A stretch of 64,000 nucleotides of DNA, taken from Candidatus Altarchaeum sp. (GTDB taxonomy: Archaea; Altiarchaeota; Altiarchaeia; Altiarchaeales; Altiarchaeaceae). A program made the position numbers and the translations under genes. This document shows positions 22,505-24,205 of the stretch, in pieces (positions within the stretch are counted from its first letter, which is position 1; every line of letters starts with the position of its first letter). Below the pieces are notes generated by a model that saw nothing but the letters and a program-made list of their open reading frames with translations, was not told the DNA's origin and did not search any database. The stretch lies in the NCBI GenBank assembly GCA_018260615.1, contig JAGWDQ010000044.1, positions 13,791-77,790 on the forward strand. Direction: 5' to 3'.

Positions 22505-24205
22505 ATGTTAACTAAAATGATAATTAATAATTGTGATTTTGAAATTGTCAGAATATTGATTGAGAATGAAAAGATGACCTTAAAAGAAATACAAAACAAA
22601 GTTCAAAAATCCAGAATTTCTGTTTATAAATCGCTGAATAAAATGGAATCGCTCGGAGTTATTGATAAGAGAAAAAATTTGATAAATCTGCGGAAAAATC
22701 CACTGACAATTGCATTCTCTAATTTAATAACAGAGGACTTTCCATTAGAATACCTGACCGGCAGGAAGTTAAACATTTTAATTGAACTTATTGATGGTGC
22801 AAGTGTAAGTGAATTGTGTAATAATATGGGAATTTCACTGTCATCGGCATACAGGAATATAAGGGAAATTTTGCCAGTTTTAACTGAAAGTTCCGGTGAG
22901 TATGGACTAAATGATAAAAATAAGACATTAATTGAATTCTTAAGACATATCAAAAACAGGGCTGAATTTCAAAGTGGTACAATAGTTGTGTGGAAAAAAC
23001 ATTTTGAAAAGTTTATTATGACAAAAAAAGCAATACTTGTTTCAGAGGCAGTACTTACTGGTTTTTCAAGATTTTCAGAGTTTGGTGTTGAATATCACAC
23101 AATTTATGATTATTATTTCTCACCGAAAAAAGATGTTTCAATTGAAGAGATTCTCGTTCATGCTATAAAATCTGCCAAAGATGCCAATATGCTTTCAATG
23201 TGTATAATCTTTTATCTCAAAAACAAGGAAAGAATAGATATATTTAAGGTGGAGAGTCAATCAAAAAAATACAATGTCCTTAATTTATGGATAGATATTG
23301 CAGCATACATTGAAGGTACCGAAACAGAAATAAAAAACAAAGGTATGTTCCTTCCCAAATCGGAATTTATTGAGAAAGCGAATGTGTATAATGTATCCTT
23401 TGTTATAAAATATCGCAATGAAAATTTATTTTCAATTTTTGATGAAATTTCAGCAAAGACGCAAATAAAAAATAAAATTAAAATTTATATGCTTGGTGGC
23501 GGCGCACTTATACTATACGGGATAAAGGAAACAACAAAAGATATTGATATAATTGTCGAAAATCATAAGGACTTTGATATACTAGAAGGTCTGTTTTTAA
23601 GCGCTAATTTCCACGAAGTTGCGGATGTTACGCCGGCATATAAAAATCTTTGCACAAGCACAATTTTGGAGCGTGAAAATTCGCCGAGAATTGACATATT
23701 TATTAAAAAGGTGTGCGGAGGAATTGTTCTTACGAACTCACTGAAAAGCAGAGCTAAGCTTGAATTTGAAAAAAATAATTTTAAAATTTATATTTTATCA
23801 CCCGAAGACATTTTTCTTTTCAAAGCATATTCATCAAGGGAAGGAGACATCATTGACTGTGAGAGGATTCTCTCGAAAAAGAAACTTGACTGGGAAATAA
23901 TTTTAAATGAATACAAAAAACAGCAAAAAAACATGAGTGCCTTTTGGGGCAATGCGATACTTGACCATATTGAAATGCTGGAAACAAGAACCGGAATAAA
24001 AATTCCAATAACTAAAAAATTAGCCCGGATTTGTCTTGAAAATGCAATTTTATACATAACTAAAAAACCAAAAACAATAAATGAAATTAAAAAAGAAATT
24101 GATTTTAACGAATATATGATAAGAAACACCATTAAACGACTAATTAACCGGAAAAAAATAAAAAAAATTAATGAAAGACCAATTAAATTTGTTACAGTAA
24201 ATTGA
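22505..24205 (+). CDS. Fusion protein: N-terminal winged-HTH regulator-like domains + C-terminal nucleotidyltransferase (AbiEii/DUF1814-like)
   Basis: HTH-like 'TLKEIQNKVQKSRISVYKSLNKMESLGVID' and 'SVSELCNNMGISLSSAYRNIREI'; NTase motif 'IYMLGGGALILYGIKETTKDIDIIV' (GG-x-AL...DxD); 566 aa. Confidence 0.5.
   Translation: MLTKMIINNCDFEIVRILIENEKMTLKEIQNKVQKSRISVYKSLNKMESLGVIDKRKNLINLRKNPLTIAFSNLITEDFPLEYLTGRKLNILIELIDGASVSELCNNMGISLSSAYRNIREILPVLTESSGEYGLNDKNKTLIEFLRHIKNRAEFQSGTIVVWKKHFEKFIMTKKAILVSEAVLTGFSRFSEFGVEYHTIYDYYFSPKKDVSIEEILVHAIKSAKDANMLSMCIIFYLKNKERIDIFKVESQSKKYNVLNLWIDIAAYIEGTETEIKNKGMFLPKSEFIEKANVYNVSFVIKYRNENLFSIFDEISAKTQIKNKIKIYMLGGGALILYGIKETTKDIDIIVENHKDFDILEGLFLSANFHEVADVTPAYKNLCTSTILERENSPRIDIFIKKVCGGIVLTNSLKSRAKLEFEKNNFKIYILSPEDIFLFKAYSSREGDIIDCERILSKKKLDWEIILNEYKKQQKNMSAFWGNAILDHIEMLETRTGIKIPITKKLARICLENAILYITKKPKTINEIKKEIDFNEYMIRNTIKRLINRKKIKKINERPIKFVTVN

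Follow-up and report, generated by a model that had tools for sequence, protein, structure and literature searches.

The window analyzed here is a stretch of 64,000 nucleotides (64 kb) from contig JAGWDQ010000044.1 of Candidatus Altarchaeum sp., and this study concerns one of its open reading frames (ORFs), which encodes a protein of 566 amino acids that joins winged helix-turn-helix (wHTH) domains to a minimal nucleotidyltransferase (NTase). The protein is identical to the hypothetical protein CVT88_00950 of Candidatus Altiarchaeales archaeon HGW-Altiarchaeales-1, and its gene is present as a single copy, with no second one found within the 64-kb window. It is flanked on the 5′ side by a SAM_HAT (DUF62) gene (positions 21568 to 22299) and on the 3′ side by radC, which lies on the minus strand (24229 to 25470), as a preliminary description of this DNA had noted when it named a DUF62 SAM hydrolase gene and radC as the flanks. 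The same description read the ORF as a single chain combining wHTH regulator domains with a minimal NTase, and both Pfam and an AlphaFold model agree with it. The ORF is best explained as an archaeal module of two components that are joined here in one chain.

Domain architecture and nucleotidyltransferase fold

From the N terminus, the fused protein carries two wHTH domains, an HVO_2833_C domain (PF24271), a DUF6036 NTase domain (PF19502), a helical linker, and a third wHTH (Table 1). The AlphaFold2 model of the whole protein, which was built on 23 homologues, has a mean predicted local distance difference test score (pLDDT) of 87. The two N-terminal HTH-like segments that had been pointed out before were recovered by Pfam and by the model; of the remaining domains, the preliminary description had recognized the NTase and overlooked HVO_2833_C (residues 184 to 297) and the C-terminal wHTH. 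The HTH domains match TrmB, HTH_24, Mga, and ArsR types. In the model, the third wHTH occupies residues ~525 to 564, with helices at 525 to 531 and 536 to 548 and a β-hairpin at 552 to 564, and the equivalent segment of relatives matches TrmB (E = 2.7e-7 in P0124 and 6e-8 in the fused form of Halovenus). A sequence search of the PDB with the whole protein gave weak HTH matches only.

Table 1. Features of the fused gene and of the DNA upstream of it, with positions counted from the first nucleotide of the window
Feature	Position	Residues	Strand	Basis
Tandem array, 3.3 copies of the 16-nt unit AAAACAAAACTGTTTC	22308 to 22360			Tandem Repeats Finder and repeat finder
Inverted 10-nt copy TTTTGAAACA of the repeat core	22401 to 22410			Inverted repeats I7 and I8
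Promoter-proximal element TAATTTATTATTAATTTGATTAACAA	22468 to 22493		+	26 nt, −37 to −12 from the ATG, conserved in relatives
Fused wHTH-wHTH-HVO_2833_C-DUF6036 NTase-wHTH ORF	22505 to 24205	566 aa	+	ATG start
wHTH 1	22535 to 22690	11 to 62	+	Pfam TrmB (E = 1.3e-9) and HTH_24 (residues 11 to 57); helix/strand pattern in the model
wHTH 2	22760 to 22909	86 to 135	+	Pfam Mga and HTH_20 (residues 89 to 128); model
HVO_2833_C domain	22979 to 23395	~159 to 297	+	PF24271 match; domain-only model
Fusion junction	23396 to 23419	~298 to 305	+	Three split pairs aligned to the window protein
DUF6036 minimal NTase domain	23420 to 23932	306 to 476	+	PF19502; Foldseek; invariant residues
Helical linker and third wHTH	23948 to 24202	482 to 566	+	Model; TrmB matches of relatives

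The NTase domain was assigned by Pfam to DUF6036 (residues 306 to 475; 48.7 bits against a gathering cutoff of 23.6; E = 9.6e-13). A Foldseek search of the PDB with this domain returned MenT1 as the best match (8an5 and 8an4, with E = 4e-4 and a probability of 1.00 for 8an5_B) and TM1012 as the second best. The modeled domain has the fold of a Pol-beta-type minimal NTase. The MenT1 entry was named an AbiEii/AbiGii toxin family protein by its depositors, and MenT1-like fragments carry PF08843. When the domain was aligned with these fragments by hhalign (E = 1e-4, probability 58%), GG was paired with GG and TKDID with TRDVD. Among PDB sequences, the profile of the domain reached MenT1 only, with a marginal E value of 0.1.

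The NTase signature that had been placed around residue 330 was found to be G331-G332...T344-K345-D346-I-D348. It provides the features of a Pol-beta-type minimal NTase, with GG331-332 as motif I and D346-x-D348 as motif II; R395 and D397 are candidates for motif III, and K440, R445, D448, and D451 for an element that is IV-like. All of these residues, together with T344 and K345, are invariant in 23 homologues down to 32% identity, and the key residues of the domain are mostly invariant in split and stand-alone NTase relatives too. In the alignments obtained with hmmsearch and hhalign, the invariant T344 coincides with T39 of MenT1, within its T-R-D-V-D motif, so that T344-K345 lines up with T39-R40 and D346 with D41. 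T39 is the site of the antitoxin-induced auto-phosphorylation that switches this toxin off, and D41, K137, and D152 of MenT1 are essential (PMC11375011). Motif IV of such toxins comprises a Lys and a downstream Asp that are required to bind NTP (K137 and D152 in MenT1; D192 in AbiEii). A Ser or Thr at the T39 position has been reported to be strictly conserved across DUF1814-type NTases, S78 being the counterpart in MenT3 (PMC11375011), and AbiEi has been reported to induce auto-phosphorylation of AbiEii likewise (bioRxiv 10.64898/2026.01.19.700257). The sequence alignment spans the N-terminal 55 amino acids of MenT1 only, which leaves K137 and D152 outside it; as judged from these alignments, the domain keeps each catalytic or regulatory position that could be checked. 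Taken together, the fold matches, the profile alignment, and the invariant motifs indicate that the NTase domain is a remote, clan-level relative of the MenT/AbiEii toxins.

The fused ORF is under purifying selection, with a ratio of nonsynonymous to synonymous substitution rates (dN/dS) of 0.13 to 0.29 against relatives. The NTase domain has the lowest ratio of all regions of the protein (omega of 0.07, versus 0.34 to 0.51 for the remaining regions, in the comparison with the relative of 88% identity).

HVO_2833_C marks the end of the regulator-like half. Its Pfam match covers residues 184 to 297 (38.3 bits against a gathering cutoff of 34; E = 2e-9), and it consists of a β-hairpin followed by a mostly helical domain (pLDDT of 90 and predicted template modeling score of 0.86 in a domain-only model), in which T185, F187, S188, H219, Y237, N240, E287, K291, and Y295 are invariant. 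A word-indexed homologue search with the alignment of this domain returned two proteins only. No fold match was found for it among PDB structures, AbiEi-type antitoxins included, or among viral folds. The N-terminal half had been described as AbiEi-like, a proposal that did not hold: no AbiEi family (AbiEi_4, AbiEi_1, or AbiEi_3) is among the Pfam matches at E ≤ 10, and the C-terminal antitoxin domain of the Rv2827c/AbiEi fold was not found in this half.

Fused, split, and variant forms

Full-length homologues of 545 to 590 amino acids, 35 to 88% identical to the window protein, were found in Altiarchaeales-like, Iainarchaeota/Diapherotrites, Micrarchaeota, and Woesearchaeota assemblies, and two of them (P0009 and P0011) are named “DUF6036 family nucleotidyltransferase” by NCBI. 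The forms under this name in Diapherotrites and Micrarchaeota metagenome-assembled genomes (MAGs) share the architecture of the window protein over its full length and fall in the fused clade of the NTase tree described below, as do the fused proteins of Halovenus salina (NZ_CP112973) and of the Halalkaliarchaeum plasmid pAArc-CO, which are annotated as “ArsR family transcriptional regulator”. These haloarchaeal, Diapherotrites, and Micrarchaeota fused forms are 30 to 39% identical to the window protein, differ from it by lineage or replicon only, and are uncharacterized. Our literature searches found no papers on DUF6036 or HVO_2833 and nothing relevant on Cmi2, and no full-length match to a characterized family was obtained, the family that is matched over the full length being itself uncharacterized.

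A profile search of 1.84 billion cluster representatives gave 282 proteins at E ≤ 1e-30 and 1685 at E ≤ 1e-3, and in it many proteins of ~200 to 280 amino acids match the NTase-plus-wHTH half only; a metagenome scan with the single protein returned one weak locus. On three metagenomic contigs, a gene for the NTase half lies directly downstream of a gene of ~300 amino acids that encodes the wHTH-wHTH-HVO_2833_C half. The two genes are separated in the first contig (L029) by a TAG that is directly followed by an ATG in the same frame, and overlap in different frames in the other two, by 17 nt (L030) and by 1 nt (L031). The pairs on plasmids pHBOR02 and pJOR178 likewise overlap in different frames, by 1 nt and 4 nt, respectively, and the stand-alone upstream partner on pHBOR02 is a core HVO_2833_C protein (E = 7e-48). 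In split forms, the NTase gene follows the regulator gene, and when the three metagenomic pairs are aligned with the fused protein, the upstream gene ends and the NTase gene starts at the junction given in Table 1. The possibility that L029 is a broken fusion was set aside, given the frames and overlaps of L030, L031, and the plasmid pairs. The occurrence of the halves as overlapping adjacent genes supports the reading of the ORF as a covalent fusion of two parts that occur elsewhere as separate genes, as first suggested.

The NTase domains were compared in a neighbor-joining tree with midpoint rooting, the sample being biased by the fused query. In this tree, 52 split forms fall almost cleanly apart from 85 fused and 19 long forms, and the window protein sits inside the fused clade, which comprises at least 100 clusters at 50% identity across DPANN-type archaea. 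This separation indicates that the fusion (or fission) is old and that the fused form is the norm within its clade. The fusion is therefore no oddity, contrary to its first description as unusual, and represents the standard architecture of a large clade.

Five proteins of 450 to 480 amino acids (P0062, P0084, P0095, P0097, and P0105) keep the wHTH-wHTH-HVO_2833_C scaffold and the C-terminal wHTH and have lost profile positions ~260 to 400, which correspond to the NTase core with motifs I to III. The existence of these variants shows that the enzyme is dispensable in some lineages, and loss of the NTase core is easier to reconcile with an accessory or toxin-like role than with an essential function.

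When plasmid records were searched with tblastn, the module was recovered from 105 haloarchaeal ones, at up to three places per record. Its usual form there is an adjacent pair annotated as “MarR family transcriptional regulator” and “DUF6036 family nucleotidyltransferase”, and fused genes of the ArsR annotation mentioned above (Halovenus salina, Halalkaliarchaeum) occur occasionally. The pair is homologous to the window protein over its whole length (24 to 26% identity, 85 to 95% coverage), with the same domain order and Pfam families, and like it is uncharacterized. It differs in being two genes, in falling in a separate clade of the NTase tree, and in the company of a gene for a 107-amino-acid protein and of orc1/cdc6, both of which are absent from the window. 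Integrases, a DUF262-HNH gene, and an ImmA gene lie near the plasmid modules. The 107-amino-acid protein is acidic, has no Pfam match, is 76 to 91% identical across genera, and is encoded divergently upstream of the plasmid module (L032, 5487 to 5810; L033, 5443 to 5760; L034, 4174 to 4497; L036, 4554 to 4877); it is weakly similar (E = 0.002) to a DUF6788 protein in L035.

Upstream DNA and gene neighborhoods

The tandem motifs that had been reported upstream of the gene are present as an array that starts 9 nt past the SAM_HAT stop codon and lies 145 to 197 nt upstream of the ATG (Table 1). The count of this 16-mer was reached by none of 100 shuffles. RNA folding of the array was not significant (z = −1.4), Rfam and tRNA scans gave no match to it, and the 11-mer core of the unit is not enriched elsewhere in the window. 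It was not found upstream of the three relatives examined, which are 68%, 60%, and 46% identical (L007, L038, and L039), and is absent from 37 of the 39 fetched loci. It is therefore a poor candidate for a conserved operator, the role first suggested for it, and is specific to the window and probably not part of the conserved module. A single copy with two mismatches (AAAACCGTTTCAAAAA) is found at 25514 to 25529, in the 66-nt spacer between a PRTase gene and radC, and is compatible with chance, given that 0.54 such matches are expected per window.

The element TAATTTATTATTAATTTGATTAACAA, which the preliminary description overlooked, is nearly invariant in alignments with the relatives of 88%, 68%, and 60% protein identity and is partly kept at 46%, while the intergenic DNA around it is not conserved. 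Its position is one expected of archaeal promoters, and it probably provides the TATA/BRE core promoter from which a leaderless mRNA is made. It is also the best candidate for an autoregulatory site and is preferable in this respect to the 16-mer array. A sigma-70 promoter scan was uninformative for an archaeon.

The downstream radC is kept only in the relative of 88% identity, and none of the neighbors is conserved among 20 DPANN-type loci, which suggests that the module is self-contained. The neighbors in these loci are a mix of housekeeping genes and genes of conflict or mobile elements, such as MNT/HEPN, RHH-PIN, and an insertion sequence element (L001), a Fic gene (L004), and an integrase (L016). 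In a Diapherotrites MAG (L020), a canonical AbiEii gene (PF08843, E = 1.7e-36; positions 2701 to 3810) lies ~1.2 kb upstream of a family member, which shows that both NTase types coexist. On a contig of 2.06 Mb (L028, 5001 to 8011), the gene of the long form P0081 overlaps by 4 nt with a DO-GTPase1 (PF19975) gene that comes after it; with a DDE transposase on the upstream side and a HicA toxin gene on the downstream side, this setting looks like a conflict island.

In the window itself, a genomic-island origin of the gene was considered and is unsupported, the GC content across the gene (0.29 to 0.31) being the same as in its flanks. The neighboring RadC has an insertion of ~230 amino acids between UPF0758_N (residues 3 to 69) and the JAB domain (296 to 411), with two internal repeat pairs, “K(V/K)Y(F/L)FSWDDVP(G/E)N...” and “KY(K/I)..LKKE(E/N)GK(L/I).(I/V)Y”; this insertion is shorter in the relative of 88% identity (L008). 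On the minus strand, positions 17151 to 20908 encode two large predicted membrane proteins that overlap and are rich in Asn and Thr. The first, of 733 amino acids, has three occurrences of the repeat “CGNNN(N)D(D)K”, and the second, of 519 amino acids, has a weak DUF6394 match.

Possible roles of the fused protein

Since the two halves are separate neighboring genes on many haloarchaeal plasmids, the fused protein looks like a one-protein module of toxin-antitoxin type. We tentatively propose, with slightly more doubt than confidence, that it is a self-contained, cis-regulated MenT/AbiEii-like NTase module. Component A (residues 1 to 297), with two winged helices and HVO_2833_C, would be a DNA-binding regulator, and component B (residues 306 to 566) is predicted to be a catalytically competent minimal DUF6036 NTase with a winged helix of its own. 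Component B would arrest growth by extending an RNA with nucleotides, the target being most likely the 3′ ends of tRNA, on which MenT-type NTases act (PMC10435456, PMC11375011). Tethered in cis, component A may hold component B inactive, by occluding it or by favoring the auto-phosphorylation of T344, and may repress the promoter of its own gene via the conserved element at −37 to −12; an external cue, such as a virus, plasmid loss, or stress, would then release the NTase. Derivatives that lack the NTase core, such as the five described above, would be expected if the enzyme is dispensable or costly.

Among the systems with which the protein can be compared, MenAT1 of Mycobacterium tuberculosis (toxin MenT1, Rv0078A, of the MenT family, with antitoxin MenA1) contains the closest solved structure. 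The GG...T-[KR]-D-x-D motifs of the two NTases line up and both belong to the minimal NTase size class. The two nevertheless differ, given that plain sequence similarity is not significant (E = 0.1) and that MenT1 fragments carry PF08843 where the window protein carries PF19502. MenA1 is short, peptide-like, and devoid of an HTH, whereas the regulator half of the window protein bears wHTHs; MenT1 is bacterial and without wHTH, whereas the window protein is archaeal and fused. The AbiE system, composed of an AbiEi (COG5340) antitoxin and an AbiEii (DUF1814) NTase, was formerly classed as Type IV and is now proposed as Type VII. Its regulator gene precedes and overlaps the NTase gene in a bicistronic arrangement, as in the split relatives; its regulator has an N-terminal wHTH and a second domain, and its NTase has motifs I to IV. 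The window protein differs from it in the two wHTHs and the unrelated HVO_2833_C domain of its regulator, in the extra wHTH of its NTase, in the covalent fusion, and in matching no AbiEi or AbiEii model of Pfam or PADLOC. Mobile elements often carry AbiE, and DPANN archaea are enriched in it (PMC3985639, PMC12988326), as they have been reported to be in compact single-gene systems (PMC12988326).

TM1012 of Thermotoga maritima (PDB 2ewr and 4hx0), the second-best fold match, is a putative NTase of ~160 amino acids that stands alone, without an HTH, and is uncharacterized. A fused toxin-antitoxin is exemplified by CapRel-SJ46, in which a toxic enzyme that transfers nucleotides is held off by an attached antitoxin domain until it is triggered. 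CapRel-SJ46 has a RelA/SpoT-like pyrophosphokinase fold and no HTH, and its likeness to the window protein is conceptual only.

Several observations weigh against the toxin-antitoxin proposal. The sequence similarity of the NTase to AbiEii and MenT is marginal and its Pfam family is a different one: PF08843 (AbiEii/DUF1814) is not among the Pfam matches listed for the window protein at E ≤ 10, and the PADLOC models gave matches to its HTH domains only, with no AbiE match. The initial assignment to an AbiEii/DUF1814-like NTase therefore stands as far as the nearest solved fold, that of the AbiEii-family protein MenT1, is concerned and fails at the level of the family. The regulator half has no kinship with the antitoxins AbiEi and MenA, and the NTase half has a wHTH of its own, which AbiEii and MenT do not. 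The window gene is surrounded by ordinary metabolic genes without a compositional anomaly, and scans of viral contigs found no relatives. The apparent age of the fused clade and its spread over several DPANN-type lineages would also fit a cellular role outside conflict. Finally, a sister subclade of 19 representatives of 640 to 730 amino acids (P0043, P0047, and P0049 among them) extends the same architecture at the C terminus, and in 6 of the 19 this extension is a recognizable TFIIB cyclin repeat (residues 601 to 674 of P0043, E = 3e-10), which hints at action on DNA or promoters and not on tRNA.

With three wHTH domains per chain, the NTase might instead be no toxin and sit on DNA or at promoters as a regulatory enzyme; it would nucleotidylylate itself, a component of the transcription machinery, or a nucleic-acid end, or would sense NTP levels, and would thereby control transcription. 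We consider this explanation unlikely, although it would account for the cyclin repeat of the sister subclade, for the retention of all HTH parts in the variants without NTase core, and for the spread of the family over several DPANN-type lineages. The fold matches of the whole model also agree with it, being to multi-wHTH DNA or transcription proteins, such as IclR, MarR, RPC62, and TFIIIC. However, the NTase is the most constrained part of the protein and retains all those catalytic residues of MenT type that could be compared, the putative phospho-acceptor Thr among them; the overlapping plasmid-borne gene pair resembles a toxin-antitoxin or addiction module; and no conserved target operon adjoins the gene. 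It is more improbable still that the protein belongs to a previously unrecognized archaeal class in which an active MenT-like NTase, docked at promoters or origins by three wHTHs, with a TFIIB cyclin repeat added in the sister clade, modifies either the end of a nucleic acid or a basal factor of transcription or replication. Such a class would imply control or immunity coupled to transcription or replication, with no diffusible tRNA toxin.

The genes found beside some family members raise the question of a housekeeping NTase for RNA or tRNA processing or repair, with the winged helices as RNA-binding modules. A tRNA-intron endonuclease (EndA) gene adjoins family members in two independent lineages, one represented by L039 (2075 to 2596, 65 nt downstream) and the other by L002 (3551 to 4081) and L018 (2267 to 2800). 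RtcB is encoded directly upstream in L021 (2885 to 4756) and HisRS upstream in L014 (2404 to 3657), and a census of the 20 DPANN loci gave one Archease match, probably the 141-amino-acid ORF beside RtcB in L021. These tRNA-splicing neighbors are a weak hint at a tRNA substrate, their numbers being too small to be sure. The activity of MenT-type enzymes on tRNA 3′ ends and fold matches to the RNA-binding wHTH arrays of SelB point in the same direction. Nevertheless, a housekeeping role appears doubtful to us: the tRNA-splicing adjacencies amount to about three independent cases without a conserved operon, no tRNA-related gene turned up among the window genes examined, and such a role is ill suited to the abundance of the module on plasmids, to several copies per replicon, and to variants without the NTase.

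Minimal NTases are antitoxins in HEPN-MNT systems, and the polarity of the module could be reversed as in that Type VII arrangement, with HVO_2833_C as the effector or toxin and the NTase neutralizing it by nucleotidylylation. The invariant polar residues of HVO_2833_C could then form an active or a modification site. The HEPN motif Rx4-6H is, however, not present in this domain, where the invariant H219 is preceded by EExxxH without a conserved Arg, and neither a HEPN match in Pfam nor a HEPN or nuclease fold match in the PDB was obtained for it. Antitoxins and regulators are typically HTH-bearing partners encoded upstream, the variants drop the NTase core and not HVO_2833_C, and the NTase is closer to the toxin-type MenT1 than to MNT antitoxins, all of which makes reversed polarity a decidedly improbable arrangement. 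A factor for replicon maintenance tied to Orc1/Cdc6 origins, acting in replication control or partition and with no toxin-antitoxin function, is the least credible reading of all, for although orc1/cdc6 (orc4) lies within ~2 kb of the module on three of five inspected haloarchaeal plasmids and the 107-amino-acid divergent gene adjoins it on four of the five, including all three with orc1/cdc6, addiction modules likewise cluster near plasmid replication regions, and neither gene adjoins the DPANN or window copies.

Both domains are already in Pfam, and members of the family are generically annotated by NCBI; a link between the HVO_2833_C/DUF6036 pair, in its fused form too, and the AbiE/MenAT paradigm seems not to have been drawn before. 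The module is frequent among DPANN-type archaea, whose genomes are reduced, and on plasmids of haloarchaea, and was missed by PADLOC, the one library of defense models that was tried. Its fused, split, and NTase-core-less forms constitute a natural set for studying the cis control of a MenT-like NTase. If the proposed toxin-antitoxin mechanism is true, the fused protein would be an archaeal single-chain counterpart of the AbiE and MenAT NTase toxin-antitoxin systems, a function would be assigned to two domains of unknown function, and antitoxin-induced auto-phosphorylation, here at T344, could be probed beyond bacteria.

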